A program made the position numbers and the translations under genes. The notes beneath the pieces are model-generated. The model searched no databases, was not told the DNA's origin, and saw only the letters and a program-made list of their open reading frames with translations. A DNA stretch of 64,000 nucleotides from the NCBI GenBank assembly GCA_036504675.1, contig DASXUT010000035.1:7277-71276 (forward strand). The letters are read 5' to 3'. The stretch comes from Bacillota bacterium (lineage in GTDB: Bacteria; Bacillota; Sulfobacillia; JAJYWN01; JAJZPE01). Of the stretch, positions 2,923 to 44,263 are shown one piece after another; position 1 is the first letter of the stretch; each line of letters opens with the position of its first letter.

Positions 2923-2994
2923 AGCCGGCGATGGGACTTGAACCCGCAACCTGCTGATTACGATTCAGCTGCTCTACCATTGAGCTACGCCGGC
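2923..2994 (-). tRNA. tRNA-Thr (anticodon CGT)
   Basis: The reverse complement folds as a cloverleaf: acceptor GCCGGCG/CGCCGGC, D-arm GCTC-AATGGTA-GAGC, anticodon stem GCTGA/TCAGC with loop AUCGUAA (anticodon CGU), and T-loop TTCAAGT. There is one C-A mismatch in the T-stem. CCA is not encoded. Confidence 0.8.
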
Positions 2995-3131
2995 ATTGCG
3001 GCTCGTCTGTGAGCCGCGCTGTCGCTGTTTATGATAGCACATTTCGGCCGCTCCGGCAACAGCCTGCAAAACTTAGAGCGGAAAGGCTTTGCGGGCGACT
3101 CTTGCCCGGCGCGGGCCGGGTCTGTTCGTGC

Positions 3132-3641: not shown

Positions 3642-3807
3642 TGGTGATTCCCCCTGTCCGTGTCATTCGCGATCTGACTAAATGTTAGCACAGCTCGTCC
3701 GGGATGGCAAATAAAGGATTCAGAGGACGGCCGAGCTTCGCGTTGGTCTAATGGCCCAGGGGTCTTGAACAAAAACATAGCCGCCCGGTGTTTCACCGGC
3801 CGGCTTG

Positions 3808-3879
3808 AGCGGGAGACGGGATTCGAACCCGCGGCCTTCGGCTTGGGAAGCCAACGTTCTACCACTAAACTACTCCCGC
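3808..3879 (-). tRNA. tRNA-Gly (anticodon CCC)
   Basis: The reverse complement gives acceptor GCGGGAG/CTCCCGC, anticodon stem TTGGC/GCCGA with loop UUCCCAA (anticodon CCC), and T-arm GCGGG-TTCGAAT-CCCGT. CCA is not encoded. Confidence 0.8.
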
Positions 3880-4038
3880 GTTGCAAAGTTCATTATAACC
3901 CAACTCGAAGGCTCATTGCAAGTCAGCGCGGTTCGGCACAAGCGCGGCGCGGACCATGGATCATTGGTCATCGGATCGGCCGGTCTGCCGGGCATGTTGG
4001 CGGCCGAGCGCCGTCGTTGTCGATCCCGATCTTGGTTC

Positions 4039-5184
4039 TCAGTGCGACCTCTCCTTGATCGCCTGGCCGGCCCGGTTCTGGAGGTCGAGTAGGCCGAGGA
4101 GGGGCTGGGCCGGGAACCCGGGGCGGACGGCCGAGAACTGGTAGTTGCGCCGGTCGACGGAGGTCCAACGGTACTTGTAATCTTCGGCTCCGCGGAGGAA
4201 ATCGAAGGCCGGGGAGCCTTCGTCGATGGCCTGCCGGATGGAGTGGGCCAGGACCAGGTTGCCAACCCCGGCCCAGGACCATTTGGGGTCGAAGCCGCCC
4301 GAATAGTAGAACGTGCCGTCGGCAGTACGAAAGCAGTACTGGCTAGCCACGCATCGGTCATCGGCGTAGGCAAGGTAGAGCCGGAGGCGGCCCTCATCCA
4401 GGAAGCGGCGGGCGACGTCGCGGTGGAACCGCCTGACCGAGGGCAGGGCGAAACTCCCCGGCATACCCTTTCCCCACCACCGCTGCTTATGAAGACTGAA
4501 GAAATCGTCCATGGCCTGGTCGACATGGGCACCGGAGTCGACCAGTCTGATTTCGAAGTTGCTCTCGCGCTCGAGGCGCCGCCGGTAATAATCCAGGTGC
4601 TTGCGGGTCTTCTTGCCCAGGTCCTGCTGGAATTCGTCCCAGGTCGACGGGAGTGGCCGATAGGGGCAGACTTCCTGAGGCAGGTAGGCCGACCCCCAGC
4701 CGGCCTCGTCGGCGGCCTGGCGGATGGCGGCAAGGGCCGGTGAGTCGCCGGGACACTCCTCGACGGTCATCAGCTCCCAAGTGGGATGGCTCCCGAGAAA
4801 GGACGTCAAGTCCCGAGCCAAGGCTTCCTCCTCACCTCGGGCGAAGATCAGATCGAGATAGTCACTATTGCCCGCGCCCATCAATCGTAGGCGACGGACC
4901 GGGAGCAGGGGCAGACCGGGCAGCAGCCACTGCCGGAAGAACGGGGCGAGTCCGGCCAACTCCCCACCGGGCCGCCGCAGGGTGATAAGGTACAGGGCCT
5001 TCCCCCGGCGGTGATGGCGCCACCACGTGGCCGCCCATGTCCAGGTTGAGAAGGGGCGATTGGACCGGCTTCCTTCGAGGAGGCTCTCCCATTCGTCACG
5101 GATGGCCGCCAATCCTACCTCTTCGGTCACCGCGCCGATCTCGTATGGCCGGCGTTCAGCGTCAAGCTCACCTGATTGGGTCAC
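4039..5184 (-). CDS. GNAT-family acetyltransferase, CelD/FemAB-like (BioF2-like acetyltransferase domain)
   Basis: In track ORF 4039..5571 the first 128 aa are out-of-frame overlap with dedA, so the real start is taken as GTG at 5184 with a GGAGGAA RBS 9 nt upstream. The C-terminal 380 aa carry CelD-like GNAT motifs (...FDPKWSWAGVGNLVLAHSIRQAIDEG...FDFLRGAEDYKYRW). Confidence 0.55.
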   Translation of the reverse strand: MTQSGELDAERRPYEIGAVTEEVGLAAIRDEWESLLEGSRSNRPFSTWTWAATWWRHHRRGKALYLITLRRPGGELAGLAPFFRQWLLPGLPLLPVRRLRLMGAGNSDYLDLIFARGEEEALARDLTSFLGSHPTWELMTVEECPGDSPALAAIRQAADEAGWGSAYLPQEVCPYRPLPSTWDEFQQDLGKKTRKHLDYYRRRLERESNFEIRLVDSGAHVDQAMDDFFSLHKQRWWGKGMPGSFALPSVRRFHRDVARRFLDEGRLRLYLAYADDRCVASQYCFRTADGTFYYSGGFDPKWSWAGVGNLVLAHSIRQAIDEGSPAFDFLRGAEDYKYRWTSVDRRNYQFSAVRPGFPAQPLLGLLDLQNRAGQAIKERSH

Positions 5185-5839: not shown

Positions 5840-7123
5840 TCAGAAGATGTCGGCCATGGTCAGGGTCTGGGTCCTTTCCCGTCCGATTGAGACCAGGCCG
5901 ACCCGGCACTTCGTCTGCTCCTCGACAAAGGATATGTATTCGGCGGCGGCCCGGGGAAGCTCTGCCGCCGAGGTCGGCCGACCGATATCCGCCGGCCAGC
6001 CGTCGAGCTCTTCATAGACTGGTTGGCATTCGGCCAGGTCGTCCAGGGAGGCCGGGAACTCCTTGACGATCTGGCCTTTGCGCCGGTATGCGGTGCAGAC
6101 TTTGACCCGCTCCGCCCCGCCGAGGGTATCCAGGCGGGTGATGGCCAGACGGTCAAGGCCGCTGACTCTTACGGCGTATCTGACGATAACCAGGTCGAGC
6201 CAGCCGCAACGCCTTGGGCGGCCAGTGGTGGTGCCGTACTCGGAGCCCCGGCAGCGGATCCACTCGCCTCTCTCATCGACCAGTTCGGTCGGGAAGGGCC
6301 CGTCGCCGACGCGAGTCGTGTAGGCCTTCATCACTCCGACGACCCGGTTGATCCGGGTCGGGCCGACCCCCGCTCCAATGCAGGCCCCGCCGGCGATCGG
6401 GTGGGACGACGTGACGTACGGGTAGGTTCCCAGATCGATGTCGAGGAGGGTCCCCTGGGCCCCTTCGAAGAGGACCCGCCGACCGGCGTCGAGGGCCTCG
6501 TTGATGATCAGCGACGTGTCGGTGACGAAGGGCCGGATGCGTTCGTAGACCCGAAGGACCTCCCCGGCCACCTCGTCAACGGTGAACCCGGGCTGGTCAT
6601 GGACCCGCTCGAGCAGCCGATTCTTCTCGTCCAGGACGACCTGGAGGCGGCGGCGAAAGTCGTCCGGTTTGGCCAGATCACAGACCCGGAGGCCGATGCG
6701 CGCCGCCTTGTCCGCATAGGCCGGGCCGATCCCGCGCTTCGTCGTCCCGATCTTGTTCTTCCCGCGCCGCTCTTCGTCGGCGGCATCCAGGCGATGATGG
6801 TAGGGCAAGAGGAGATGAGCCCGGTCGCTGATCCTCAGGTTCGGTCGGGTGACCCCCTGATCCTTGAGGTAATCCAGCTCGCGGTCGAGGAGGCCGAGGT
6901 CGAGGACCACGCCGTTGCCAATGACTGAGAGCTTGTCCGGGTAGAAGATGCCGGAAGGAACCAGGTGAAGCTTGTATTCGTTATTTCCCACGACCACGGT
7001 GTGGCCGGCGTTGCTCCCACCCTGGTACCGCACCACCATGTCGGCCTGCTCGGCCAGGTAGTCGGTGATCTTGCCCTTACCTTCGTCGCCCCACTGGGCG
7101 CCAACGATGATGATCGACGGCAT
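5840..7123 (-). CDS. purA: adenylosuccinate synthetase
   Basis: 427 aa with the P-loop QWGDEGKGK, GSNAGHTV, and KIGTTKRGIGPAY motifs. Full-length PurA. Confidence 0.95.
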   Translation of the reverse strand: MPSIIIVGAQWGDEGKGKITDYLAEQADMVVRYQGGSNAGHTVVVGNNEYKLHLVPSGIFYPDKLSVIGNGVVLDLGLLDRELDYLKDQGVTRPNLRISDRAHLLLPYHHRLDAADEERRGKNKIGTTKRGIGPAYADKAARIGLRVCDLAKPDDFRRRLQVVLDEKNRLLERVHDQPGFTVDEVAGEVLRVYERIRPFVTDTSLIINEALDAGRRVLFEGAQGTLLDIDLGTYPYVTSSHPIAGGACIGAGVGPTRINRVVGVMKAYTTRVGDGPFPTELVDERGEWIRCRGSEYGTTTGRPRRCGWLDLVIVRYAVRVSGLDRLAITRLDTLGGAERVKVCTAYRRKGQIVKEFPASLDDLAECQPVYEELDGWPADIGRPTSAAELPRAAAEYISFVEEQTKCRVGLVSIGRERTQTLTMADIF

Positions 7124-7125
7124 GC

Positions 7126-8535
7126 CTACCCCTCCCCCTCGAACCCTTCGCGCCCGAGGATTTCCTTGGCCACGTGGACCCCGGACGCGGAGGCTTGGAC
7201 CAACCCGCGGGTGACCCCAGCCCCGTCCCCGGCCGCGAAGAGATTCTGGACCTTGGTTTCCAATGATTTTGAGAGCTCCAGACGCTGTGAATAGAACTTG
7301 ACCTCGACACCGTACAGAAGGGTATGGCGCGAGTAAACGCCTGGGGTGATCCGGTCCATCGCCTGCAGCATCTCGAGGATGCTGATCAGATGGCGGTAAG
7401 GTAGAACCAGGCTGAGGTCGCCCGGGGTGGCCTCCTTGAGGGTCGGCTCGACCATCCCGCGCTGAAGGCGTTTCTGGGTCGAGCGGCGGCCGGCCAGCAG
7501 GTCTCCCAGGCGCTGGACCAGGACTCCCCCGCCGATCATATTGGCCAGGCGGGCGATATCCCGACCGTAGGAGAGCGGCTCCTTGAACGGCTCGGTGAAC
7601 GTCTTCGAGACGAGCAGGGCAAAGTTGGTGTTCTCCGTCCTCTGGTCGGAATAGCTGTGGCCGTTGACGGTCAAGAGTCCGCCGGTGTTCTCGATGACCA
7701 CCTCCCCGTATGGGTTGACGCAGAAGGTGCGGACCTGGTCATCGAAGGACTTCGAGTAGTAGATGAGCTTGGCCTCATAAAGCTCCTTGGTAAATGGTTC
7801 GAGGACGACCGCCGGGAGCTCGACCCGGACTCCGATGTCGACGGGGTTGTTGGCCAGCGGCAGGCCGAGCTTCTTGGCCTGTCCGGTGAACCACTCGGCT
7901 CCCTCACGCCCGGGAACGACCACGAGGTAACGGCTCCTGATCACCGTTCCACGGGTCAGGCGGACGCCGGTCACCCGCTCCCCTTCGACCAGGATCTCCT
8001 CGGCCTGCACCCGCGTACGGATGTCGACTCGGTCGGCCAGGTGGTCGCGCATCGCCGAGAGGATGTCGTAGCAGCGATCGGTCCCCAGGTGACGGACCCG
8101 CGTGGGGATCAGGGACAGGTCGGCCGTGGCCGCCTGACGCTGTAAATCCCGAAAGGCGGCGCCGTTGGTCCCGTAGACTTCCTCCGGCGCTCCGAACCTC
8201 AGGTAGACCTGGTCAACGTAGCCGATCAGTTCGTCGAGGCGCTGACGCCCGACGTACTGCTCGAGCCATCCGCCGACGGCATGGGTCAGGGTCAGCTTGC
8301 CGTCGCTGAAGGCCCCGGCTCCGCCCCAGCCGGAGAGGATGAGGCATGGCTCGCAGCGGGTGCAGCCGACGTGCCTGACCTGCATGGGGCAGCGGCGCTG
8401 GTTGATGTCCGGCCCCTTCTCCAGGAGAAGGACCTTAAGCTTCGGCGCCTTCTCGGCGAGTTCCAAGGCGGCGAAGATGCCGGCCGGCCCGGCGCCCACG
8501 ATGGTTACATCATAGCTTTCCACGTTCTCCGGCAT
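7126..8535 (-). CDS. FAD-dependent protein (COG2509-type NAD(FAD)-utilizing dehydrogenase)
   Basis: Begins with the Rossmann motif YDVTIVGAGPAGIFAALELAE. 469 aa with the C-terminal domain typical of uncharacterized FAD-dependent dehydrogenases. Confidence 0.75.
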   Translation of the reverse strand: MPENVESYDVTIVGAGPAGIFAALELAEKAPKLKVLLLEKGPDINQRRCPMQVRHVGCTRCEPCLILSGWGGAGAFSDGKLTLTHAVGGWLEQYVGRQRLDELIGYVDQVYLRFGAPEEVYGTNGAAFRDLQRQAATADLSLIPTRVRHLGTDRCYDILSAMRDHLADRVDIRTRVQAEEILVEGERVTGVRLTRGTVIRSRYLVVVPGREGAEWFTGQAKKLGLPLANNPVDIGVRVELPAVVLEPFTKELYEAKLIYYSKSFDDQVRTFCVNPYGEVVIENTGGLLTVNGHSYSDQRTENTNFALLVSKTFTEPFKEPLSYGRDIARLANMIGGGVLVQRLGDLLAGRRSTQKRLQRGMVEPTLKEATPGDLSLVLPYRHLISILEMLQAMDRITPGVYSRHTLLYGVEVKFYSQRLELSKSLETKVQNLFAAGDGAGVTRGLVQASASGVHVAKEILGREGFEGEG

Positions 8536-22558: not shown

Positions 22559-25500
22559 TCATTGCCCGGCCGCCACCGATGGTCTCTTGGCTTGCTTTCC
22601 CTCATACATCCGCTCATCGGCGCGGGCCACCAGTTCGGCCGGCCGGGCTCCATCGTCCGGGAAGATGGCCACGCCGACCGTCACCCCGGGGAGCCTGAAT
22701 TCTCGTTCCTGCAGGCTGATGGAACGGTCGGCGACGGTCGCCGCCAGGCGCTCGGCGGCCTGCCTGGCCTCGTTGGCGCCGGTCCTGGGGAGGATGACGG
22801 CAAACTCGTCCCCTCCATACCTGGCAACGGTGTCGGTCGCGCGAAAGCTCTCATCGAGTGCCCTGGCCAGCGCCACCAGGGCCTTGTCGCCTGCGAGGTG
22901 GCCGTAGACGTCGTTGATCAGCTTGAGGCTGTCGACGTCGATGAGGATTATCGCCAGAGGGGCCATGTCTTTGGCCGATCGTGAGATTTCCTCCTCCAGG
23001 CGTCGGTAGAAGTAGGAGTGGTTGTACGTTCCGGTGAGGCCGTCGTGGATGGCGGCGTGGGCTACCTGTTCGTGGTAGCGGGCCACCTCGATGGCGATGG
23101 AAATCTGCCCGGCCACCGCGCTGACCAGGTAAAGGTCTTCTCGGGAAAAGGCGTTCAGCGGCTCCGATTCAATGTCGAGGACACCGATGGTCCGCCCTTC
23201 GGCGACTAGCGGCACGGCCAGTTCGGAGAGCATCCGGCGGGCCGGGCTCGGGTAATAGCGGGGATCTGAGCGGACGTCGCCGACCACCTGGGGCAGGCCA
23301 TGCTGGGCGACCCATCCGGTGAGCCCCTGCCCCTTGAGGATGTGGGGCCGCTCCGGCCCGGTCGGCAGCCCGACCGAGGCCTTGGCGACCAGGTCTCCGG
23401 TTTCCTCGTCGACCAAGAAGAGGGTATACAGGTTGGGCCCCATCGCGTCGTAGAGGATGCTGAGGATGCGGTGCATCAGATGGGACGGGTTCAGGAGGGA
23501 CCTGGTCTCGAGGGAAATCTGGTAGAGAATCCCCAGTTCCTTCCCGTGGACCGGGAGGATCCGCCCGATGGTCGTCTCGGGCTTGGGTGGGCCAGCCTCC
23601 AGCGGGCCCCTGCCCCCGGGTCGCTCAAGGACGGCATAGGCCGGATCGCGCTCCTCTTGTAGACGTCTCAAGTGGGTCACGAGGTGATCCACTACCGTCG
23701 GGTCGAATTGGGTCCCCCGGCCGGCCTGAAGCCTGGTGATGGCCTCTTCCGGGCGGAGTCCCAGGCGGTACGGCCGGTCAGTGGTCATCGCGTCGAAGGA
23801 GTCGGCGACGGCAAGAATGCGCGAACCAAGCGGGATGGCCTCCCCGGAGATTCCGTCCGGGTACCCCCCACCGGCCCACCATTCATGGTGATGCTTGACC
23901 AGCGGGACGATCTCTCGAAACTGGGCCACTTGCTGCAGGATGTTGGCCCCCTTGACCGGATGTTCCATCACTTGCGCCCGTTCGAGGGGATCCAACGCGC
24001 CCTTCTTCTTGAGGACGGTATCCTCGAGCCCGATCTTCCCGATGTCGTGGAGGACGCCGGCGTATTCGATGGTCGGCAGGGTCTCCGCCGGCAGGTTCAT
24101 CTCCCTGGCGATCATCAGGGCGTAATGGGAGACGCGGGACGAATGGGCTCGGGTGCGGTGGTCCCGGGCGTCGACCGCCTCAGCCAGGGTCTTGATGGCC
24201 GCCATGTAGAGGTCACGTTCGCGCTTGAAGACGGTCGCGTTATGGATGGCAATGGCCAGCTGTCTTGAGAGGGTACCGATGGCGTCGACCTCGTCCTCGA
24301 TGAAGGCCCCCGGGGTCCTGGACTCAAGGTCCAGGACGCCGAGGACGTCGTCGCCGACCTTGAGAGGAAGGCACATGCGGGCCCTGGAGGCCAGGCCGGC
24401 CACCGAGGCTTGGACCGGGTCCTGACCGACATCATTGGCCACCAGGGGCTGTCCATTGCGGGCCACCCACCCGGCCATTCCTACATTGACGCTCTGGGTG
24501 AAGCCGTCCGGGACGTCCTTGGCCATCGTCCCGGCCTGGGCATAGAGTCTGAGTTCCTCACTTTCCCGGTCATGCAGGAAGACGGCGGAATAGTCGTGGC
24601 CCAGGTCCTTGGTGAGGAAGACGACGACCTCATTGAGCAAGGTCGGCAGGTCGAGAATGGCGGTGAGGTGATGGCTGGCGCGGCCGATGGCCGTCAACTC
24701 GCTGACCTTTCGTTCCAGCCGGCGGGTCAGCCGGCTCTCCTGGATGGCCGAGGCCAACTGTCCGGCGAGGCCTTTGACCAGCTGCTCGTGTTTCTCGCTG
24801 AATTCCGCCGGCCCGGAGTAGCCGATCAGCAGGGCGCCCAGCTGGTCTTCCCCGCTGCGCATGAGCCCGACGATGGCGCTTCTGACCCGGAACTGCCCCT
24901 GGAAGCAACGAGACAAGCCGGTAAGCTTGGCGGCGTCCTCGATGAAGACGACTTCGTCGGTCCCCGCCGAGCCGGCCAGGGTGGCGAAGTCTGCCGCGAT
25001 CTCGGAGAGGGGTTCCACCCCGGTCACCTCGACCTCACCGCCGGTGCGGGTGGCCCGCATGATTGTCCTTGGCGTCCGGTGGCCGGGCTCGTGGACACAG
25101 ACGGCCATGCCGTCGTATCCCAAGACCTTGACCATACAGTTGGCGGCGGCTGAGAAGATGGACCGGAGGTCGTCCCGTCTGGCCACCCTCTGGGCGACTT
25201 CAAGAAGGGCCGTCAAGACGTCGGCCTCTTCTCGGAGCTTCGTGTAGAAGCGAACGTTTTCGATCATCCCTGAGACCTGTCCGGCCATTCTTTCGGCGAA
25301 GTCCTGCTCAGCCGGGGTGAAGGGCTGCCTGTGATTCCGCGAAAGGCTGAGTGATCCGAGGAGCCTCCCGCGAAACCCCAGGGGGACGGTGAGGCTGAAG
25401 CAAGCGTCGGCCCCCCAGAGGGCCGCGGCCAATCCCTCATCGGCCGCGGTTTCCGGGGGCGGAACGCTCCGGAGGGTGACGTTCCAGGGCTGGGGCCCGG

Positions 25501-27088
25501 GCCCTTCCGGGCGCGCGCCGGCCAGCTCCAAACCGCCGGTAGCGGTCTCAAGGGCGAGGCACAAGTGATCGAGGGGGACCACCGTACTCAGCTCCGTAGC
25601 CAGCTGGGGTACGAATTCCCCGGGGGTGGTCGAGGTCGCGGCGGCGTGAAGGGTGCGGTTAAGAGCGGCGTTCTGTTCCGCCCGGGCACAGGCTTGTCGG
25701 CGTAGGGTCGCATTGTTGACGGCGACGGCCAGGTGGTCCACGATGGGGGTCAGGAAGCTGATGGTCGTTTCGTCGAAGGCGTTTGGCTTGGCGCTTCCCA
25801 GGTTGAAAGTGCCGAGGCAGGTGTCGCCGAAGATGAGGGGAAGGCAGAGAACGCACCTGAGGTCCGTCTCGAGGAGGGCGCGGTCCCCCACGAACTCATC
25901 GGGATTCGCTTGGAGATCCCGGGAAAGGACCGGGGCCTTGACTTCGACGGCTCGCCCAGTTCTGGTCCCTTCCAGAGAGCCGCCTCCGCGATCGGAGTGG
26001 GCCTGGTCGAGGCGGCCGATGAGGGCCAGCGGCTGGAACGTCTTCCCTTCTTGGTCAACGGTGGCCACGGAAAGCTGGTCGAAAGGGACGTGCTTCCCGA
26101 TGGCCTTTCCCAAGGAACTAAGGACGCTATTGAGGTCGAGGCTGGAACTCAGGGCCAGCGCAGCTTCGCTGGCCGCCCGCAGACGGGCCTGCGCCTCCCG
26201 CTCCCAGGAGATGTCTCGGAGGGCGACCAGCCGGCCGGTGACTTCGCCGGCCCGCGCGTGCAGTGGGGTTGTGAAGACGCTGAGGGTCGCCCCGGCCGGC
26301 CTGACCAGTTCGACCTCTTCCTTCACCGTCCGGCCTGCCTTGGTGTATGCTCCGGTCAGGAGTCTTTCGACTTGGTGCGGATCGGCAGCCCGGCTTCTGA
26401 GAACTTCAAGGATGGGGCCAGGGGCCCTTTGCCCGATCAGTCCCTCGGGGTCGAGCCCGAGGAGGTCGGCGACTCGCTTGTTGGCAATCTGAATGATGTG
26501 CCGGGGGTCGGTCATGATGATTCCGGCATCGGACGATTCCAGAAGGGCTTCCAGCTTCTCGCCCCAGTCCCTGGCGTGGTCGTAGACGGTGACCTGGTCG
26601 ATGACCTGGGCCGCTTCGTCCGCGAAGGCCCTGAGCTCGGGCAGCATTTCCGCGGCAAACGTCCCCGTATGGTCGCTGGCCAGGTCGATGACTCCCAAGA
26701 CGTGGCCGTCCTTGACCAACGGGAGGCAAGCCTGAGACCGCAACCCAGCGGCCACGGATGGGGCTGAGAAGGGGTTCTTGGCGGCGTCATTGGCCATTCG
26801 GAGTCTTCCGTCGGCGACGGCCTGCGCGGCGAGTCGGCTCACCGGGGCCGCCACCCTCCGGACGTGCTTCCGGGCATTGCCGGAAGACCTGCCTGCCGTC
26901 AGGGCCAGGCATTCCTGGCCATGACCGGTAAGGTGGAGGGTCGCCCGCTCGACCGGGAAGGCGGCAAGCATGTCCTCCAGCAGCCGCCCGAGAACTTCGT
27001 CCAGGCCTATTGGGCCGGACCGGCGGCGGGTGGAGGGCTTGGCGCCCGGCTTTTCCGGCCGTGAAAGTCCTGGTTTCGTCCTTGGCAT
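22559..27088 (-). CDS. multidomain c-di-GMP signalling protein: multiple GAF + PAS + HD-GYP phosphodiesterase + GGDEF diguanylate cyclase
   Basis: About 1,509 aa with at least five GAF-like segments and a PAS domain. The HD-GYP domain carries HDIGK...HHEWWAGGGYPDG. The C-terminal GGDEF domain carries GLTGTYNHSYF...RYGGDEFAVILP. Start chosen at ATG 27088 with a GGGAGAAAG RBS; track start 27262 and ATG 27118 are alternatives. Confidence 0.85.
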   Translation of the reverse strand: MPRTKPGLSRPEKPGAKPSTRRRSGPIGLDEVLGRLLEDMLAAFPVERATLHLTGHGQECLALTAGRSSGNARKHVRRVAAPVSRLAAQAVADGRLRMANDAAKNPFSAPSVAAGLRSQACLPLVKDGHVLGVIDLASDHTGTFAAEMLPELRAFADEAAQVIDQVTVYDHARDWGEKLEALLESSDAGIIMTDPRHIIQIANKRVADLLGLDPEGLIGQRAPGPILEVLRSRAADPHQVERLLTGAYTKAGRTVKEEVELVRPAGATLSVFTTPLHARAGEVTGRLVALRDISWEREAQARLRAASEAALALSSSLDLNSVLSSLGKAIGKHVPFDQLSVATVDQEGKTFQPLALIGRLDQAHSDRGGGSLEGTRTGRAVEVKAPVLSRDLQANPDEFVGDRALLETDLRCVLCLPLIFGDTCLGTFNLGSAKPNAFDETTISFLTPIVDHLAVAVNNATLRRQACARAEQNAALNRTLHAAATSTTPGEFVPQLATELSTVVPLDHLCLALETATGGLELAGARPEGPGPQPWNVTLRSVPPPETAADEGLAAALWGADACFSLTVPLGFRGRLLGSLSLSRNHRQPFTPAEQDFAERMAGQVSGMIENVRFYTKLREEADVLTALLEVAQRVARRDDLRSIFSAAANCMVKVLGYDGMAVCVHEPGHRTPRTIMRATRTGGEVEVTGVEPLSEIAADFATLAGSAGTDEVVFIEDAAKLTGLSRCFQGQFRVRSAIVGLMRSGEDQLGALLIGYSGPAEFSEKHEQLVKGLAGQLASAIQESRLTRRLERKVSELTAIGRASHHLTAILDLPTLLNEVVVFLTKDLGHDYSAVFLHDRESEELRLYAQAGTMAKDVPDGFTQSVNVGMAGWVARNGQPLVANDVGQDPVQASVAGLASRARMCLPLKVGDDVLGVLDLESRTPGAFIEDEVDAIGTLSRQLAIAIHNATVFKRERDLYMAAIKTLAEAVDARDHRTRAHSSRVSHYALMIAREMNLPAETLPTIEYAGVLHDIGKIGLEDTVLKKKGALDPLERAQVMEHPVKGANILQQVAQFREIVPLVKHHHEWWAGGGYPDGISGEAIPLGSRILAVADSFDAMTTDRPYRLGLRPEEAITRLQAGRGTQFDPTVVDHLVTHLRRLQEERDPAYAVLERPGGRGPLEAGPPKPETTIGRILPVHGKELGILYQISLETRSLLNPSHLMHRILSILYDAMGPNLYTLFLVDEETGDLVAKASVGLPTGPERPHILKGQGLTGWVAQHGLPQVVGDVRSDPRYYPSPARRMLSELAVPLVAEGRTIGVLDIESEPLNAFSREDLYLVSAVAGQISIAIEVARYHEQVAHAAIHDGLTGTYNHSYFYRRLEEEISRSAKDMAPLAIILIDVDSLKLINDVYGHLAGDKALVALARALDESFRATDTVARYGGDEFAVILPRTGANEARQAAERLAATVADRSISLQEREFRLPGVTVGVAIFPDDGARPAELVARADERMYEGKQAKRPSVAAGQ

Positions 27089-27372
27089 TGCTTTCTCCCT
27101 GCCCGAAAATTGAGTCATCCTTGGCTTAGAGAATATCGGCGTTTCGGCTGTTTCTATTGAGCCGACTGAACGCGGCGCCGGGGTGGGACGGGGCGTCGTG
27201 GTTCGTCGAGCAGCCGTCAACCGCCCTCTGGTTAGCCCGGGTCCAGCGGCCCGCGGTAGCATAAAGCCCCGCCGCGATTGGGCGGGGCCGAGCCATCAAG
27301 AGATTGGAGTCCGCCGCTGGGTCAGCCGGCGGGCTGAAGGTACCGCAAGCCTCCTTCGCCAAAAGGCCGTTC

Positions 27373-35186: not shown

Positions 35187-35588
35187 CTAGACCGGTGACG
35201 GCTTGGGCTTGAGCGCCGGTTTCTCCTCGCCCGTCTTCATCTCGCTGGTGCCGCGGAAGATGGCCCCTTCCCCGATGATAAGGCCAGCTACCTTGATGTC
35301 CCCGTAGAGGCGACCGGTGGGAACCAGCTCGAGCTTCCCTTCGGCTTCGACGTTCCCCTTGACTTGGCCGGCAATGCTTATGTGGCGGGCGTGAATGACC
35401 GTCGCGACTACCATGCCGGTCTCTCCGACAATGAGATCGCCCTTGTGGTGGATCTCGCCCTCCACCTTGCCGTCGATCCTGAGCACTCCGCTGGAGTTCA
35501 AAACCCCTTTGAACTCTGTTTCCTTGCCGACGATGGTGTCAATTTTCTCCATGGCAATACCATCCCGCCCATCCTTTTTCCCGAACAT
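35187..35588 (-). CDS. bactofilin (CcmA-like polymer-forming cytoskeletal protein)
   Basis: 133 aa with a beta-helical bactofilin repeat (TEFKGVLNSSGVLRIDGKVEGEIHHKGDLIVGETGMV...GQVKGNVEAEGKLELVPTGRLYGDIKVAGLII) and a Pro/Lys tail. Confidence 0.8.
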   Translation of the reverse strand: MFGKKDGRDGIAMEKIDTIVGKETEFKGVLNSSGVLRIDGKVEGEIHHKGDLIVGETGMVVATVIHARHISIAGQVKGNVEAEGKLELVPTGRLYGDIKVAGLIIGEGAIFRGTSEMKTGEEKPALKPKPSPV

Positions 35589-35654: not shown

Positions 35655-36647
35655 CTACTGGATATAGGTCCGTGGGTTGACCGGCTTGCCGTTGATCCAC
35701 ACCTCGTAGTGCAGGTGGGGCCCCGTGCTTCGTCCGGAGCTACCGACGTAGGCAATGGTCTGCCCCTTGGTGATTCGATCACCCACGTTCACGACGATTT
35801 TTTGGGTGTGTCCGTACATGGTGCTGAAGCCATAGCCATGGTCGATGACCACGGCTCGCCCGAAGGCCCCCCTCCAACCGGCGAAGACGACCTTTCCATC
35901 GCCCGTGGCGATGATCGGGGTGCCGTAGGCCGCAGCGATGTCCAGCCCCGAGTGGTACTCAGTGCCGAAACCAAGGGGCGAGGAACGAAAACCGAAGCCA
36001 GAGGTAATCGACCCGTTGGTCGGGAATACCGACGGCCTGGCCGCTTGGTACAACTGGTTCTCGGTCAATTGCTTGCGGAGGTCCTCGAAACTCACCTGCC
36101 GGTTGGTCATGTCGGTGCGAACTGTGTCGAGGTCGGTCTGGAGGCCGGCCGCCCGGCTCAATAGGTCTCGACTGACCTGAGCTCCGCGGTCATCGCCGGG
36201 GAGGATGGAGGCAGTGGTGTAATCGGCTCCCCCTTGCCCGCCCCCGACCGTCGGCGTTTCCACTGTGCTTGGCTGGTACGGAGTTGAGAGTTGAACCCGG
36301 CTGAAGTCCCGACTGGTCTTGAGGATCTCGCGGATCTGCCGGTCAAGCTCGGACAGACTCTGCATGTTCGCTTTCAGCTGGTCGGTCTCGGTCATCAGGG
36401 CCTCCAGCTGCTGGCGCTGCTCCCGGTTGACCAGTCGAACCTGTCTCAACTCGGACATGTTGGCCTTCATGTCCTGATAGACGTTGGCGAAGATGAGCAA
36501 CGACAAGCTGAGGACAATGAGAATGAAACTGGCTACCTGGAGGGTGGTCAGGTGGATGCTGAAGCTGTAGACAGACCGCTCTGAATGGGGAACAATCATG
36601 ATGGTAAAAAGTTTCCGGCCGCCTTTTGCGGTCAAGCTTCTCACCAC
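35655..36647 (-). CDS. M23-family metallopeptidase (LytM domain) with N-terminal TM anchor and coiled-coil
   Basis: The C-terminus carries HSGLDIAAAYGTPIIATGDGKVVFAG...GHTQKI...GSSGRSTGPHLHYEV. A membrane anchor and long coiled coil lie upstream. The start is uncertain: GTG at 36647, TTG at 36632 or ATG at 36599. Confidence 0.8.
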   Translation of the reverse strand: MVRSLTAKGGRKLFTIMIVPHSERSVYSFSIHLTTLQVASFILIVLSLSLLIFANVYQDMKANMSELRQVRLVNREQRQQLEALMTETDQLKANMQSLSELDRQIREILKTSRDFSRVQLSTPYQPSTVETPTVGGGQGGADYTTASILPGDDRGAQVSRDLLSRAAGLQTDLDTVRTDMTNRQVSFEDLRKQLTENQLYQAARPSVFPTNGSITSGFGFRSSPLGFGTEYHSGLDIAAAYGTPIIATGDGKVVFAGWRGAFGRAVVIDHGYGFSTMYGHTQKIVVNVGDRITKGQTIAYVGSSGRSTGPHLHYEVWINGKPVNPRTYIQ

Positions 36648-36737: not shown

Positions 36738-37262
36738 TCAGGTGCCTGGCCGTTCCTGGCGTTGCGTCAACGCCTGGCGGACGGCATCCTTCTCCTCGCC
36801 GGTCAGCTGATAGGTTGATTGGCCATCCTTGATCGGCTTGGCGTAGATGCGAGACTCGTCCCGGCCGAACAGGCTTGACAGGACGACTCCGTCCCGATGG
36901 CCGTCAATGAGGGCGAAGGAGAAGCTCAGATCGCTGCCGACGCCCTCGAAGGCGTTGAACCTGACCATACCGATGCCTTGAAAGCAGCGCCCGAGGCTCT
37001 CCAGGATGTCCTGGCGGGAGCGACGGAGGTCGGCCAAGTCCGTCTCGCTGTGGGTGAGCCGTTGGTCGATCGAGGCGAACAGGGCCTGCAGGTCGCGGCC
37101 CTGGGCATCACTGTATAGCCTTCGATACAAGCGGGCGTTCGCGAGCAGCCGACGATAGGCGAGGATGAAGATGGCCAGGGCGGTCAGCGTGACTGCGATG
37201 GCCAGGGCCAGCGCTATGGTCACGGGAACAAGTCGAGCGATGACGGCTTGGGAATCGAGCAT
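36738..37262 (-). CDS. DUF4446-family protein
   Basis: 174 aa with an N-terminal TM helix followed by the DUF4446-like core (LQALFASIDQRLTHSETDLADLRRS...GMVRFNAFEGVGSDLSFSFALIDGHRDGVVLSSLFGRDESRIYAKPI). Confidence 0.6.
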   Translation of the reverse strand: MLDSQAVIARLVPVTIALALAIAVTLTALAIFILAYRRLLANARLYRRLYSDAQGRDLQALFASIDQRLTHSETDLADLRRSRQDILESLGRCFQGIGMVRFNAFEGVGSDLSFSFALIDGHRDGVVLSSLFGRDESRIYAKPIKDGQSTYQLTGEEKDAVRQALTQRQERPGT

Positions 37263-40057: not shown

Positions 40058-40960
40058 CTACGTGGTAAGCACCCGAGAGCGCACCCCTGGGGTCGTGCCG
40101 GATGTGCCTCGAGTCAGGACCATGTCGAGGATCCTCTCGAGGTCCTCCCGGCTATAGTAGTCGATCTCGATTCTCCCCCGCGCCTTTCCTCTTAACTGCT
40201 TGACCCTAACCTGGGTCCCAAAGGCTCGTTGAAGGTTCTCCTCGACCTCGACCATCATCGGCTCACGATGGCGAGTGCTGGCCTTCGGTTTATTCTCCTT
40301 GTCGGCAGCCAGCTTCTTCGCCAGCTCCTCGGCTTGGCGGACCGATAGCTCCTTGGCCACAATCGCCTTCGCCAGGCGGAGGCGCAGATCATCCAGCTCA
40401 AGTGAGAGGATCGCCCGAGCATGTCCGGCGGAGAGTGTTCCACGTGAAACATCGTCCTTCAACTCCGCCGGAAGGCTCAGAAGCCGCAGTGAGTTGGCCA
40501 CCGCCGGCCGGCTCCGGCCTACCTTGTGGGCCACGTCCTCCTGAGTCAACGAGAACTCATCCATCAGTCGACGAAAAGCCTCCGCTTCTTCGAGCGGATT
40601 CAGGTCCTCGCGCTGCAGGTTCTCGACGAGGGCGATCTCCATGCTTTCCGCCTCGCCGAATTCGCTCACCACAACTGGAATCTCCCGCATCCCGGCCAGT
40701 TGCGCCGCCCGCCAACGCCGCTCCCCCGCCACCAGCTCGTACCCGTCGTTGACGGGCCTAACGAGAATCGGTTGCACGACACCGTGTTCCTTGATGGATT
40801 CCGAGAGCTCACGGAGCTTCTCTTGGTCCATCACCCGCCGCGGTTGGTATCGATTGGGCTTTATCCTGTCAATTTGAAGCCGAGACGCCTCCGAAGGGCC
40901 CTCGTCGCCCCCCGGCAACAGCGCCTCAAGCCCCCTGCCTAGCCCTCGTTGCTTGGGCAT
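40058..40960 (-). CDS. parB: chromosome partitioning protein ParB/Spo0J
   Basis: The ParB box GERRWRAAQLAG and the HTH are present. In track ORF 40058..41041 the first 27 aa are junk overlapping parA, so the start MPKQRGLGRGLEALL at about 40960 is preferred. Confidence 0.85.
   Translation of the reverse strand: MPKQRGLGRGLEALLPGGDEGPSEASRLQIDRIKPNRYQPRRVMDQEKLRELSESIKEHGVVQPILVRPVNDGYELVAGERRWRAAQLAGMREIPVVVSEFGEAESMEIALVENLQREDLNPLEEAEAFRRLMDEFSLTQEDVAHKVGRSRPAVANSLRLLSLPAELKDDVSRGTLSAGHARAILSLELDDLRLRLAKAIVAKELSVRQAEELAKKLAADKENKPKASTRHREPMMVEVEENLQRAFGTQVRVKQLRGKARGRIEIDYYSREDLERILDMVLTRGTSGTTPGVRSRVLTT
40436..40451 (+). other. parS centromere-like site inside the parB/spo0J coding region
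   Basis: Exact 16-bp palindrome TGTTCCACGTGAAACA, matching the Bacillus parS consensus tGTTNCACGTGAAACa. Confidence 0.6.
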
Positions 40961-41714
40961 GCATCGCAACCTCCTTGGCGAGCTCGGTGTAGACCTCTGC
41001 GCCCTTGGATTTGGGGTCGTAGGTGATGATCGGCTTCCCATACCCGGGAGCCTCGCTCAGTCGGATGTTCCGCGGGATGATTGTCTGATAGACTTTCTCC
41101 CGAAAGAATCGCTTGACTTCCTCCGCCACCTGGTTGGAGAGGTTCGTCCGCGCATCGTACATCGTCAGTACCACCCCTTCAAGCTGTAGCCCCGCGTTCA
41201 GCTGATTTTGGATGAGGTGGATCGTGTTCATCAACTGGGTCAGCCCCTCCAGCGCATAGTACTCACACTGGATGGGGACCAGTACCGAGTCAGCTGCGGT
41301 TAGTGCATTAACGGTCAGCAGTCCAAGGGAAGGCGGGCAGTCGATGAGGACGAACTCGTAGTCGTCGCGCACATCGGCCAGCGCCTTCTTCAGCTTGGTC
41401 TCCCGGGACAGGGCCGGCACCAGTTCGACCTCTGCACCCGCCAGGTCAATGGTCGACGGCACCAGGTCCAGCCCGCCCACCACGGTCTTCACGACGACCT
41501 CGCGCATCGGGACATCGTCAATCAGCACCTGGTAGATACATTGGGTAATCTTCTTCTTGTCGACTCCCAGACCGCTCGTGGTATTCCCCTGCGGATCGCT
41601 GTCGATGAGCAGCACCCGGTGACCCAGTGCTCCTAAGGCCGCCCCAAGATTGACCGCGGTCGTGGTCTTCCCCACTCCGCCTTTCTGGTTGGCGATGGCG
41701 ATAACTCTGCTCAT
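40926..41714 (-). CDS. parA: ParA/Soj chromosome partitioning ATPase
   Basis: Deviant Walker A IAIANQKGGVGKTTTAVNLGAAL. In track ORF 40926..42092 the first 126 aa are wrong-frame junk. ATG at 41714 (MSRVIAIANQKGG) has a GGGGTGA RBS. Confidence 0.9.
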   Translation of the reverse strand: MSRVIAIANQKGGVGKTTTAVNLGAALGALGHRVLLIDSDPQGNTTSGLGVDKKKITQCIYQVLIDDVPMREVVVKTVVGGLDLVPSTIDLAGAEVELVPALSRETKLKKALADVRDDYEFVLIDCPPSLGLLTVNALTAADSVLVPIQCEYYALEGLTQLMNTIHLIQNQLNAGLQLEGVVLTMYDARTNLSNQVAEEVKRFFREKVYQTIIPRNIRLSEAPGYGKPIITYDPKSKGAEVYTELAKEVAMHAQATRARQGA

Positions 41715-41937
41715 CCAATCACCCCATCCATTCCTTGAACCCCCGTCGACGACCCCTTGCTGTCTGTCCAGAACTTCGTCACTGAAAAACCCAGTTCCTT
41801 CTCTTCTTACCAGATATGCGCCCAACCGCTTCCCCCGCCCTTGACGCGGCCCGCCCATCCTACGGTCTCCCCCCGGGCCGCCAAAGACCAGCCGGCACTG
41901 GACTCGGTTCCGCCTTCCTCGAACCTGGCACATGCAG

Positions 41938-41969
41938 TCAAACAAAAAAGCGGTGCACGGCGCACCGCT
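41938..41969 (-). terminator. rho-independent terminator downstream of the ParM-like gene
   Basis: The minus strand reads AGCGGTGC-GCCGT-GCACCGCT followed by TTTTTTGTTT. The stem is 8 bp, perfect. Confidence 0.6.
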
Positions 41970-41997
41970 AGTTCGACCTTCGCACGGTAGGCGACCC

Positions 41998-43044
41998 TTA
42001 ATCCAGGAATCCGCCACCGTTCTCGCTCTTGAAGACCCGCCGGGCCAACTTGTGGAATCCTCTAGCGTTGGCCATTTGGGCGTTCTCGACAATCATCGCG
42101 TTGGGAAATTCTGTCATCAGATACTGCCCCAGAGGCTGCCCGCCCCCGCCGGTGATCAGAATCCGGTCGAGATCGCGATAGTCCCACAGGGAATCGACCA
42201 CCGTGATGAGCTTTGCAGCCACCCACTCGAGGGTTTCCTTCTTGAACTCGCTGAGGTCGTAACCCTTTCCGGCAATCCTGATCTCGCCCCGCTCGACGAT
42301 TTCGTCCATCTCCCAGTTCTCTTTGTCAATGGCGAAGATCTCCCGGAGCTTGCCGGCAATGATCCCATAGGCGCTGGCCAGGCCAGTGGTAGTCGACGTG
42401 CTCAGCCGGTCGATGAACTCCATCCCGTCGGCCACGGCGAAATCGGCTGTCTTGAACCCGATGTCGATGATCCCCACCTTGGCCCGGCTGAGGTCCTGGT
42501 CAACAACGCGCCCGGTGTCATCGAGGGTCTGATCGTACAACGTCCCAAACGGCTGCGGAACCACCTTGACCTTGTCCACGTCCAGGACCAGATCGCGATC
42601 GCCATTGCCCTCATGCACCGTCAGCTCGTGCGCCCCCCGCAGGGCCTCCGCCAGCCCGTCCCGGTAACTCGCGTAGTAGTTGGTCGGGAGGCCGGTGACG
42701 ACGTTGAACGATTGCTGCGGTTCCGAGGCGAAGACGCTCAACCCGGCAAGGAGCAACACCTTGACATTCTTGTCCTGAACGCGATTCGGATCCAGGGAGC
42801 GGGCGGCGATCTCACTCTGGCGAACGGCCAGCCTCCCCACGAAGTACCGTCGTCCACCAACGCTGACCATCAGGTTGTCCACCAATCGGCTTCGGTCGGT
42901 GAACTCAGACTGGTACGATAGCGGCTGGCCAAGCCCCACTACGCTTGGGAAGAGGCATTCCTTCTCCCCATCGGTGACCTTGACAAACCCGTACCCGAGG
43001 TCGATCCCGAGACCCTTCTTGCTCAAAGAACGCTCCACCTCCAT
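41998..43044 (-). CDS. ParM/StbA-family actin-like ATPase (stand-alone, chromosomal)
   Basis: Actin-fold motifs GIDLGYGFVKV (phosphate-1), RYFVGRLA, VGIIDIGFKTADFAV (phosphate-2), and ILITGGGG (adenosine) are present. 349 aa from ATG 43044 with a GGAAGGAA RBS. The track start at 43101 lies inside the upstream terminator U-tract and is rejected. Confidence 0.75.
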   Translation of the reverse strand: MEVERSLSKKGLGIDLGYGFVKVTDGEKECLFPSVVGLGQPLSYQSEFTDRSRLVDNLMVSVGGRRYFVGRLAVRQSEIAARSLDPNRVQDKNVKVLLLAGLSVFASEPQQSFNVVTGLPTNYYASYRDGLAEALRGAHELTVHEGNGDRDLVLDVDKVKVVPQPFGTLYDQTLDDTGRVVDQDLSRAKVGIIDIGFKTADFAVADGMEFIDRLSTSTTTGLASAYGIIAGKLREIFAIDKENWEMDEIVERGEIRIAGKGYDLSEFKKETLEWVAAKLITVVDSLWDYRDLDRILITGGGGQPLGQYLMTEFPNAMIVENAQMANARGFHKLARRVFKSENGGGFLD

Positions 43045-43097
43045 GTGGTTTCCATTCCTTCCCGATCCGTGGTCAGGAATCGGAGCCTGCTTCAAAG

Positions 43098-43268
43098 ACA
43101 TAAAAACCCGCCTTTCTGGATGCCGAAAAGGCGGGTCTACCCCAATACCAACCCTCCTTCGGTAGCCCGGCCGTCCTAGCTCTCGCCTTAGACCCGTGGC
43201 TTTGCGTCCCTGCCTTTCGACAGGTTTGCCTTTATCGGGACGGATCTATATCCTTTTGCTGTGCCCTT
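43098..43268 (-). promoter_or_regulatory. class-I c-di-GMP riboswitch (GEMM motif) with terminator/antiterminator expression platform
   Basis: The minus-strand RNA reads GGGCACAG...AGGCAAACCUGUCGAAAGGCAGGGACGCAAAGCCACGGGUCUAAGGC. This matches the Vc2-type consensus GGGCAAACCnnnnGAAAnnnnGGGACGCAAAGCCnCCGGnCUAA, with a compensatory P2 stem (CCUGUC/GGCAGG) around a GAAA tetraloop. Downstream, UAGACCCGCCUUU can pair either with the aptamer segment CGGGUCUA or in the terminator CCCGCCUUU-loop-AAAGGCGGG followed by UUUUUA (43100-43135). Confidence 0.7.
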
Positions 43269-43277
43269 CCTAATTCA

Positions 43278-43306
43278 CCATAATTCGCCAAACTCCTGCT
43301 TGTCAA
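43278..43306 (-). promoter_or_regulatory. sigma-A promoter driving the riboswitch leader (TTGACA-17-TTATGG)
   Basis: On the minus strand TTGACA (43301-43306) is followed by a 17-nt spacer and TTATGG (43278-43283). It sits immediately after the TAA stop of the noc-like gene. Confidence 0.45.
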
Positions 43307-43316
43307 GAAGAATTTT

Positions 43317-44180
43317 TTACTTCCGGAGCTTCCCCGACGCCGACCCGGCCTGCTCCCTCGGGATGCGCACGGTCACCTCGATGAACTCCCCCCGGTCGGC
43401 TTCGCTCATCTGCGCCCTGACCCCCGCATCACGCAGGGTCTTTACCGCCTGGCGGAAGGTGTTCAGGAAAATGCGGACATCCTTGAATACCCTCAGCACC
43501 CTTTGACCCTTCCCTCCCGCGGTCTCTATTTCGCGGGAAATTTGCTCGAGGGTCTCCGCCACCAACTCCTCCGTCCGCCGAACTGAGAGGCCCTCCTGGG
43601 CGATGCGCTGGGCTATCTTCCCGGCCAGTCTGCCATCTTCCAGGCGGAGCAGGGCCCGGGCGTGGGTCTCGCTTAGCCGGCCCCCCCGGACCATCTCCTG
43701 CACGGGCGGGTCGAGCTTCAACAGCCTTAGCTTGTTGGCAATGGCCGGTTGGCTGCGACCAAGCCGTTGGCCCAACTCCTCTTGGGTCAGCCCGTGTTCC
43801 TCGATGAGCCGCTTATACCCGACCGCCTCTTCCAGGCAGTTCAGGTCCTCGCGCTGAAGGTTCTCGACCAGACTCAGGATGGCCTGGTCGATCCCACCCA
43901 TACTACGAACGATGACCGGCACTCGCTCGAGTCCGGCCATCTTAGCTGCCCTAAGGCGCCTTTCCCCGGCGACGAGCTCGTAGCCTCCGTCAGACAACTG
44001 CCTGACCACCAGGGGCTGAAGGACGCCATGCTCTCGCAGGGAGGCCGACAGCTCAGACAGCTTCGCCGGGTCAAACTGCTTCCGCGGTTGGTACGGGTTT
44101 ATCTTGATTCGGTCCAAAGCAACGTCGATTACCACGGTGCCGCCTTCCGGCCTGGCTCTTGCGGCCTCGTCCCCTGGCAT
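43317..44180 (-). CDS. ParB-family protein in the Noc (nucleoid occlusion) position
   Basis: ParB box GERRLRAAKMAG, an HTH, and 287 aa. It sits directly after rsmG as noc does in Bacillus. ATG at 44180 with an AGGGAGGG RBS about 9 nt upstream is preferred over GTG at 44189. Confidence 0.8.
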   Translation of the reverse strand: MPGDEAARARPEGGTVVIDVALDRIKINPYQPRKQFDPAKLSELSASLREHGVLQPLVVRQLSDGGYELVAGERRLRAAKMAGLERVPVIVRSMGGIDQAILSLVENLQREDLNCLEEAVGYKRLIEEHGLTQEELGQRLGRSQPAIANKLRLLKLDPPVQEMVRGGRLSETHARALLRLEDGRLAGKIAQRIAQEGLSVRRTEELVAETLEQISREIETAGGKGQRVLRVFKDVRIFLNTFRQAVKTLRDAGVRAQMSEADRGEFIEVTVRIPREQAGSASGKLRK

Positions 44181-44263
44181 CCGGCCCACCCCTCCCTGGA
44201 GGTTGGCGTGACCCTCGCCGCCCCTCTCTTGTCTAATAAGCCATTTCGCCGCTCTCAGCGGGA

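Follow-up and report, generated by a model that had tools for sequence, protein, structure and literature searches.

It was only in 2024-2025 that chromosomal homologues of the actin-like plasmid segregation protein ParM came to notice, and only in cyanobacteria have cellular roles been assigned to them. In Anabaena sp. PCC 7120, the chromosomal ParMR system CorMR was found to be repurposed as a cell-shape cytoskeleton (Springstein et al., bioRxiv 10.1101/2025.06.27.661541), and for the BALP family of cyanobacteria a role in regulating the morphology of filaments has been reported (mSphere 2025, PMC12645912). In the survey of genome-encoded ParMs (cParMs) by Ali et al. (J Biol Chem 2025, PMC12270681), the cassette of Nt-cParM2 from Natranaerobius thermophilus was singled out as being without the adaptor gene cParR. 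Here we describe an actin-like protein (ALP) gene of the ParM/Alp type, located on a contig of an uncultured bacterium from a high-GC lineage of Bacillota, within a stretch of 64,000 nucleotides (nt) that was analysed as a whole and is hereafter called the window. The gene follows a predicted cyclic di-GMP (c-di-GMP) riboswitch, and we tend to see in it an adaptor-less filament system working in cell shape or division. All genes of the cassette and of its neighbourhood given below are on the minus strand.

The cassette occupies the gap between the transcription units of noc and soj-spo0J; it is self-contained and holds a single gene, with a promoter-like site, an aptamer, a leader terminator, a Shine-Dalgarno (SD) sequence, the open reading frame (ORF) and a terminator of its own. 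Its parts, in the order of transcription, are the following.

43277..43306, minus strand: promoter-like site TTGACA-18 nt-TATGGT, matching the consensus at 10/12 positions
43157..43239, minus strand: c-di-GMP-I aptamer (RF03167, 78.2 bits for a gathering threshold of 59, E = 7.7e-18, full length)
43095..43138, minus strand: intrinsic terminator of the leader (attenuator), stem ACCCGCCUUUUC / GAAAGGCGGGU, then UUUUUAUGUCU
43045..43083, minus strand: nearly invariant non-coding block, TTCCTGACCACGGA..GGGAAGGA.TG.AAACCACA, between the leader terminator and the SD sequence
43033..43042, minus strand: SD sequence GGAGGTGGAG, 6 nt before the TTG start and kept in 3/3 orthologues
41998..43026, minus strand: ALP gene (actin-like, ParM/Alp type), 342 amino acids (aa), TTG start, recognised by profile, fold and homologues
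41939..41969, minus strand: intrinsic terminator of the ALP gene, AGCGGTGCGCCGTGCACCGCT + TTTTTTGTTTG, 29 nt past the stop codon

The protein matched the Pfam profiles ALP_N (E = 2.8e-36; 125.4 bits against a cutoff of 26.3) and MreB-like_C (8e-13; 49.5 bits against 27.8), and since both scores exceed their cutoffs, the actin fold is real, far above chance. An earlier note on this DNA had pointed to an actin-fold ORF between noc and soj with the motifs GIDLGYGFVKV, RYFVGRLA, IDIGFKTADFAV and ILITGGGG, all of which were recovered. The actin nucleotide-binding motifs were recognised as GIDLGYG (phosphate 1), IDIGFKTAD (phosphate 2) and ITGGGG (adenosine), and a careful alignment with 28 homologues left them in place, residues D15, G17, D194, G196, T199, D201, G299-301 and Q164 being invariant or nearly so. 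StbA (PF06406), the family that had been named for the protein, gave no Pfam match at E ≤ 0.01, and this part of the proposal has to be dropped; the NCBIfam ParM equivalog PRK13917 scored 115.6 bits against a cutoff of 417, and the PRTRC-D and FcmB models were far under their cutoffs. The weakly matched FcmB model is probably that of the BALP family. No Pfam or NCBIfam match to PilM or FtsA was obtained at E ≤ 0.01 either, and an identity of this kind was rejected on the absence of a profile match and on the neighbouring genes, noc, soj and spo0J.

Among proteins of solved structure (PDB), the sequence matched pCBH ParM (1.8e-29), Dh-cParM1 (2.5e-23), then pSK41 ParM and CorM (2e-10). An AlphaFold2 model was built on the 28 homologues (predicted local distance difference test, pLDDT, 88.6; predicted template modelling score, pTM, 0.88), and a Foldseek search of the PDB with this model placed Dh-cParM1 (8x1i) at rank 1, with E = 5e-26 and a query-based TM-score (TMq) of 0.85. 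The top 26 matches were all ParM, Alp, Ta0583 or CorM structures, with TMq 0.46-0.85 and at least 0.59 in all but one, and MreB, MamK and Hsp70 ranked below them. By its sequence and its modelled fold, the protein is a ParM/Alp-type actin-like ATPase, and the ParM-type call made beforehand has withstood both the profile searches and the structural comparison.

Within this type, the protein aligned with Nt-cParM2 (WP_012448769.1) over 333 aa without gaps, at 47% identity. It is thus a chromosomal gene product of ParM fold with a homologue among the listed cParMs, and because this homologue is listed as being without cParR, its sequence assigns it to a recently noticed, uncharacterised group of adaptor-less genome-encoded ParMs. 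A search of 1.84 billion proteins put the size of the family at 181 representatives (50% clusters) with E ≤ 1e-30. Chromosomal homologues with 45-87% identity were plentiful in metagenome-assembled genomes (MAGs) and genomes of Bacillota, those with 45-60% being spread across many Bacillota. Relatives on mobile elements were more distant and none was more than 32% identical: the closest plasmid ParM reached 30% (2e-20) and the closest phage proteins, gp27.9 of the SPO1 group, 31-32% (about 1e-41; SPO1 itself 2e-41), with a match of 1.8e-66 to PHROG 691, 'partition protein'. The SPO1 gp27.9 gene (NC_011421.1, 96316-97314) is nearer to the chromosomal ALP family than any plasmid ParM, and 191 of the 197 phage matches were from Bacillus phages.

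A scan of GTDB species genomes yielded 294 ALP relatives, and the best 80 of these 294 loci were analysed for all locus counts given here. Between the ALP genes of the window and of its two closest loci (L001 and L002), the pairwise ratio of non-synonymous to synonymous substitution rates (dN/dS) was 0.06-0.10 at dS 0.9-1.2, which shows that the gene is under strong purifying selection. Its content of guanine plus cytosine (GC), about 0.60, is the same as that of soj and spo0J. The GC content, the distance to plasmid and phage relatives and the dN/dS values led us to reject a recent plasmid or phage origin; the earlier note was right that the gene does not look like a plasmid remnant.

That note had also placed a second-messenger riboswitch and a promoter before the gene, and both proposals agree with the aptamer and the promoter-like site given above. 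The aptamer belongs to Rfam clan CL00126 (GEMM-I), and that of the closest outgroup locus, L003, scored 79.6 bits on RF01051. For the window aptamer the best-scoring Rfam model was RF03167, the 'GGC' variant, whose name probably stands for positions 20/47/92, with G instead of A at the intercalating position 47. The G of the variant consensus (GACGCGAAG) is an A in the window (GACGCAAAG), the second diagnostic position likewise reads UACCG instead of UGCCG, and GCAAAG was found in 16/16 related aptamers. Because both diagnostic positions are A, as in canonical c-di-GMP-I aptamers, RF03167 is here the best-scoring model and not an indication of the variant, and a GGC-variant riboswitch with a different ligand was rejected. 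The pocket is formed by the equivalents of G20 (43230), A47 (43203) and C92 (43162), the spacing of 27 nt from G20 to A47 is that of Vc2, Vc1 and Bc1, and helix P2 is capped by a GAAA tetraloop. The pocket nucleotides were kept in 15 of the 16 related aptamers, L013 deviating at the C92 junction. With this canonical G20/A47/C92 pocket, c-di-GMP is the expected ligand. An expression platform follows in the form of the terminator at 43138-43095, which is conserved in the orthologues. The organism both makes and degrades c-di-GMP, since the window itself encodes a large protein with the corresponding domains.

22559..27262, minus strand: PAS-GAF-HD-GYP-GAF-GGDEF protein, 1567 aa, with five GAF stretches (HD_5 4e-40, GGDEF 1.7e-42)

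Aptamers related to that of the window were sought with a covariance model built from four of them, and one was found upstream of the ALP gene, on the same strand, in 16/80 loci: L001, L002, L003, twelve loci of Syntrophomonadaceae type (L013-L048) and L066. The aptamer stood immediately 5' of the gene in all of them except L066, where it lay 1.4 kb upstream; the leaders of L029 and L030 were identical in sequence. In the alignment of the 16 aptamers, 97% of the cells were paired and covariation was seen in P2 and P3. The ALPs with an aptamer fell into three separate clades of a neighbour-joining tree. Rfam scans covering 28 loci gave no riboswitch of another class ahead of the other ALPs, and no c-di-GMP aptamer was found upstream of Nt-cParM2 or, except in L066, of the bactofilin- or ftsEX-linked relatives. 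Two loci stood out by gene number: L008 (100-3570), from a Symbiobacterium thermophilum MAG, has three paralogous ALP genes in tandem upstream of HIT, whose products share 38-55% identity with the window protein, and L072 has two.

The genomic position was far less recurrent than the riboswitch. The order rsmG-noc-ALP-soj-spo0J was shared only by L001 and L002 among the 80 loci, both from uncultured 'Bacillota bacterium' MAGs with ALPs of 83-87% identity. The insertion asked about in the earlier note was therefore present in two orthologous genomes and absent from the other 78 loci. In L003, from the sister clade of the window, the module of riboswitch and ALP gene was found beside HIT/rpsU and not beside noc/soj; as the module is kept at another site there, it is the module and not the location that is inherited.

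Within 2.5 kb of the ALP gene, neighbours were established by clustering of flanking ORFs and by hidden Markov model (HMM) searches, and genes for envelope functions recurred among them. A bactofilin gene (Pfam 4.7e-24) was found in 14/80 loci, in nine of them directly downstream on the same strand, and an M23 peptidase gene in 13/80, eight of these being part of an ftsEX-M23-protease cluster; ftsE/ftsX were present without M23 in three further loci. These adjacencies occurred in several separate ALP clades. Bactofilin and M23 peptidase are an established morphogenetic module: according to Pöhl et al. 2024 (PMC10945521), their genes adjoin each other in many different species and their products work together in shaping the cell. 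The most compact arrangement was the following.

L066, 1894-5105: operon with a single aptamer, M23 peptidase gene (to 2994), bactofilin gene (2994-3347), ALP gene (3388-4428) and second bactofilin gene (4431-5105), the genes abutting or overlapping

Judged by this gene order, L066 looks like a riboswitch-controlled operon for a cytoskeleton and a hydrolase. The MAG in question is labelled 'Mycobacterium leprae', apparently through mislabelling or an error in binning. In L050-L060, a divergent ftsE-ftsX-M23-protease cluster abuts the ALP gene, and at about 6000-7300 the latter is followed by two conserved genes without a Pfam match, encoding proteins of about 143 aa (c8) and about 282 aa (c10). 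Both are absent from the window and are candidates, in this ftsEX-linked clade, for a partner or adaptor of ALP.

In the window, the minus-strand order was jag/yidC, mnmE, mnmG, rsmG, noc-like parB, ALP, soj and spo0J; dnaA, dnaN and recF lie at 51.2-55.3 kb on the opposite strand, with about 8 kb between ALP and dnaA. The region is a classical Bacillota origin region plus one extra gene, and the flanking order rsmG-noc-soj-spo0J reported beforehand was reproduced by our profile searches. The genes next to the cassette and further downstream are listed here, the first three as context only.

43317..44189, minus strand: noc-like ParB gene, upstream neighbour (ParB_N and HTH_ParB; TIGR04285 302.8 bits, just below its cutoff of 315)
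40926..41714, minus strand: soj, downstream neighbour (profile matches)
40058..40960, minus strand: spo0J, downstream neighbour (profile matches)
36738-37262, minus strand: DUF4446 gene, downstream of spo0J
35655-36647, minus strand: M23 peptidase gene, product with transmembrane and coiled-coil regions, downstream of spo0J
35187-35588, minus strand: bactofilin gene, downstream of spo0J

A perfect parS (TGTTCCACGTGAAACA) was found within spo0J at 40436-40451, for a chance expectation of 0.02. A palindrome resembling a Noc-binding site (ATTTCGCGGGAAAT) is located within the noc-like gene at 43528-43541; with one mismatch, it falls short of significance. On either side of the ALP gene, the gaps 41715-41997 and 43045-43316 held no credible small ORF that could encode ParR, and around the gene there was no parC-like repeat array, only scattered short matches in two or three copies as expected by chance. 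The gene is for these reasons without ParR and parC, in line with what had been noted before, and it is set in an oriC-proximal housekeeping region of host-like GC content rather than on a mobile element as plasmid ParMRC genes are. The bactofilin and M23 genes downstream of spo0J form the same pairing as beside ALP homologues in other lineages.

As for the details of the cassette, the promoter-like site begins 11 nt past the stop codon of the noc-like gene and is about 35 nt upstream of the aptamer. Since one such site was found in 5.3 kb for 0.7 expected by chance, it is suggestive only; its -10 element is kept in L001 and L002 and its -35 element is not. No terminator was found between noc and the aptamer, so that read-through from noc into the riboswitch is possible. 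The leader terminator has perfect 10-nt arms, extendable to about 13 bp, and an 11-nt loop, and its hairpin survives substitutions, with energies (kcal/mol) of -23.0 for the window, -20.8 for L001 and -22.0 for L002. Downstream of it, 40-45 nt before the SD sequence are identical in the window, L001 and L002, despite the dS of 0.9-1.2 in the coding sequence, where synonymous sites are close to saturation. Only weak hairpins are predicted for this block, and its segment ATCGGGAAGGA (43066-43056) is complementary to the 5' flank of P1, TCCGTCCCGAT (43244-43234); the block may add a further level of control, at translation.

The earlier note had given the ORF as 41998-43044 with 349 aa. Its end was retained, and its start was not: both orthologues have AGG in place of the ATG at 43044, all three sequences keep the SD sequence GGAGGTGGA and, at 43026, a TTG in frame, and NCBI annotates a protein of at least 90% identity with 342 aa. 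For these reasons, the coding sequence is most likely 41998-43026, starting with TTG and encoding 342 aa, and the version from the ATG at 43044 is probably six codons too long. The ATG of a still longer version, at 43101, falls within the U-tract of the leader terminator. At the other end, the terminator expected from the same note proved to be strong, with a 9-bp hairpin containing six GC pairs followed by TTTTTTGTTTG (41969-41949), and it insulates the gene from soj-spo0J.

The architecture of the leader bears on the direction of the switch, for which OFF, i.e. repression at high c-di-GMP, is the probable answer. Binding of c-di-GMP would lock the aptamer, the leader terminator would form and transcription would stop, so that the protein would be made at low c-di-GMP. 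The terminator does not overlap the 3' strand of P1, and in the minimum free energy (MFE) fold it coexists with the two conserved hairpins of the aptamer, the closing helix being drawn in a shifted register; this coexistence suggests that the liganded aptamer is compatible with the terminator, as in an OFF switch. In all three orthologues, the 5' arm of the terminator (ACCCGCCUUUUCGG) can pair instead with three aptamer segments at -17 to -23 kcal/mol, namely the J1/2 AAAGGC region, the P2 loop with the 3' strand CGAAAGGCAGGG, and the 3' strands of P1/P3. Such pairing would act as an antiterminator only while the aptamer is unliganded. The layout of an aptamer followed by a terminator was also observed in L001, L002, L003 and L066, with stand-alone terminators in the latter two. 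The Syntrophomonadaceae loci have a 7-bp extension of P1 directly followed by a U-run, which predicts termination when the ligand stabilises P1. In L040, L048, L039, L041 and other Syntrophomonadaceae, P1 (ATACCTG...CAGGTAT) is followed by a T-run, e.g. TGTTTTTTT, with no separate hairpin before the ribosome-binding site, and P1 itself may be the terminator stem. The same cassette could also be an ON switch, in which high c-di-GMP would allow read-through and cells would make the filament while sessile or in a biofilm, for instance to alter their shape or chaining. Riboswitches of the c-di-GMP-I class are generally known in both polarities, Bc1 and Vc2 being discussed in the literature; a helix between the 5' strand of P1 (UCCCGAUA) and the downstream segment UAUUGGGG appears in the MFE folds and is kept in L001 and L002, and the antiterminator of the OFF model is statistically undistinctive. 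The ON alternative nevertheless seems unlikely to us, given that the terminator is clear of the P1 3' strand and folds beside the aptamer hairpins, that no upstream segment freed by the ligand pairs well with the 5' arm of the terminator (only 3-4 bp of GGG/CCC), and that in Syntrophomonadaceae it is the ligand-stabilised P1 itself that precedes the U-tract.

With regard to function, we lean, if only modestly, towards a c-di-GMP-repressed, adaptor-less ParM-type filament with a role in cell shape or division and not in ParMRC segregation. By analogy with Dh-cParM1 and pCBH ParM, the protein would polymerise with ATP or GTP into filaments; these would not push DNA through a ParR/parC complex and would be a cytoskeletal element in envelope morphogenesis or division, probably together with the bactofilin/M23-endopeptidase (and FtsEX) machinery, the position beside parABS being a permissive insertion site and not a functional coupling. 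Several points weigh against this reading. Polymerisation of the subfamily, its partners and its cellular role are extrapolated from homologues and gene neighbourhoods. The riboswitch and the neighbour associations are both partial, since about 64/80 loci have no detectable riboswitch and about 55/80 no bactofilin, M23 or ftsE neighbour, and the neighbour counts allow for phylogeny only through the view by clades. In the window itself, bactofilin and M23 are encoded 5-7 kb away from ALP and separately transcribed, and have been given little weight for that reason. The complementarity of the antiterminator was not clearly above that of shuffled arms, of which 66, 154 and 38 of 1000 were equal or better, so that the OFF direction derives from the architecture and is not established; the three orthologues are too close for independent covariation. 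Finally, the persistence of the order noc/ALP/soj over a dS of about 1.2 could have a functional cause besides inertia.

The last point leads to the role that had originally been suggested for the gene, a filament acting at the origin with Noc, Soj and Spo0J in the organisation of the chromosome or cell pole; the segregation of origins or nucleoid occlusion would then be adjusted by c-di-GMP. The gene is indeed located between noc and soj, 1.5 kb from the perfect parS, the arrangement is kept in three genomes at an ALP dS of about 0.9-1.2, and Ali et al. (PMC12270681) consider that genome-encoded ParM systems might supplement ParABS. However, comparative data gave this role no support, with only two of the best 80 loci sharing the position, the sister clade carrying its module beside HIT/rpsU, and adjacency to envelope genes recurring elsewhere; terminators at either end insulate the cassette, and movement of DNA by ParM-type filaments requires an adaptor, whereas neither a ParR-like adaptor nor centromere repeats were found at the locus. 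We hold an action at the origin to be quite improbable and the position between noc and soj to be probably incidental; a role with the envelope machinery is the better-supported hypothesis. Still less credit can be given to a domesticated or decaying partition gene, taken from a plasmid or an SPO1-like phage and now devoid of a cellular role. Databases do name the protein 'plasmid segregation protein ParM', PHROG 691 and the SPO1-like gp27.9 (31% identity) are matched as indicated above, and there is no partner gene. The low dN/dS, the nucleotide-binding motifs, all intact, the host-like GC content, the housekeeping genes on both flanks, the dedicated and conserved riboswitch leader, and the contrast between chromosomal homologues of 45-60% identity across many Bacillota and mobile-element relatives of at most 32% make such a fate highly improbable, and the selection and conservation data largely refute it.

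A bolder version of the envelope reading, possible but doubtful at this stage, would see here the first riboswitch-controlled bacterial cytoskeleton: widespread adaptor-less ParM-like actins of Bacillota, switched by c-di-GMP at the RNA level, would remodel shape or division with bactofilin/M23 (and FtsEX) in the motile-sessile transition, the L066 operon being the complete form and the window cassette a split version. The recurrence of the riboswitch in three clades ties an actin-like filament to a lifestyle second messenger. If this holds true, the cytoskeleton would be a new class of output in c-di-GMP riboswitch regulons, and ParM would have been diverted from DNA segregation for a second time independently. 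The locus also offers two testable handles on the largest unstudied group in Bacillota, the c-di-GMP riboswitch as input and the bactofilin/M23 partnership. No paper that connects a c-di-GMP riboswitch with ParM or actin-like genes came up in a full-text literature search, from which most subscription journals were missing; the combination, met in three clades, is apparently undescribed, while both of its parts are of known kinds. The link of ALP to bactofilin-M23 modules appears undescribed as well, being absent from Ali et al. 2025 and from PMC10945521 in term searches, no dedicated literature search having been made.

Comparison with known systems brings out how the locus combines familiar parts. 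Nt-cParM2 is of the same subfamily, chromosomal and without ParR, and both proteins are known only from annotation and an AlphaFold check; unlike the window gene, it stands after murJ and no c-di-GMP aptamer was detected with it, and the paper that lists it (PMC12270681) mentions no riboswitch, soj or bactofilin link. Dh-cParM1 of Desulfitobacterium hafniense, the best structural match, is likewise chromosomal and forms nucleotide-dependent filaments, but it is only about 25% identical, has a conserved cParR downstream and no reported riboswitch. Among solved structures, ParM of pCBH from Clostridium botulinum (6ixw, 6izr) is the best match in sequence and shares the actin fold and the nucleotide-binding motifs. 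The plasmid ParMRC systems (pCBH, R1, pSK41, Alp7A, AlfA) are plasmid-borne and possess ParR and parC, both of which the window ALP is without, and plasmid homologues are at most 30% identical to it. CorM (9rmi; Foldseek rank 6) is also a chromosomal ParM homologue, turned to cell shape; it is from another phylum, depends on a ParR homologue encoded next to it (CorR, which carries a membrane-binding amphipathic helix), and is regulated by MinC, whereas the window ALP has no adjacent small gene and is regulated by a riboswitch. The SPO1-like gp27.9 resembles ALP as a stand-alone actin-like gene and is its closest relative on mobile elements, but it is phage-encoded and far less similar than the chromosomal homologues of Bacillota. 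On the RNA side, Cd1 of C. difficile (flgB) is a c-di-GMP-I riboswitch with a terminator platform. Bc1 of Bacillus thuringiensis (PMC11218506) shares with the window leader the c-di-GMP-I aptamer, the G20/A47/C92 pocket, the GAAA tetraloop and a downstream rho-independent terminator, and likely represses at high c-di-GMP. The riboswitch of the window would control an actin-like cytoskeletal gene instead of a flagellar, adhesin or chemotaxis gene.

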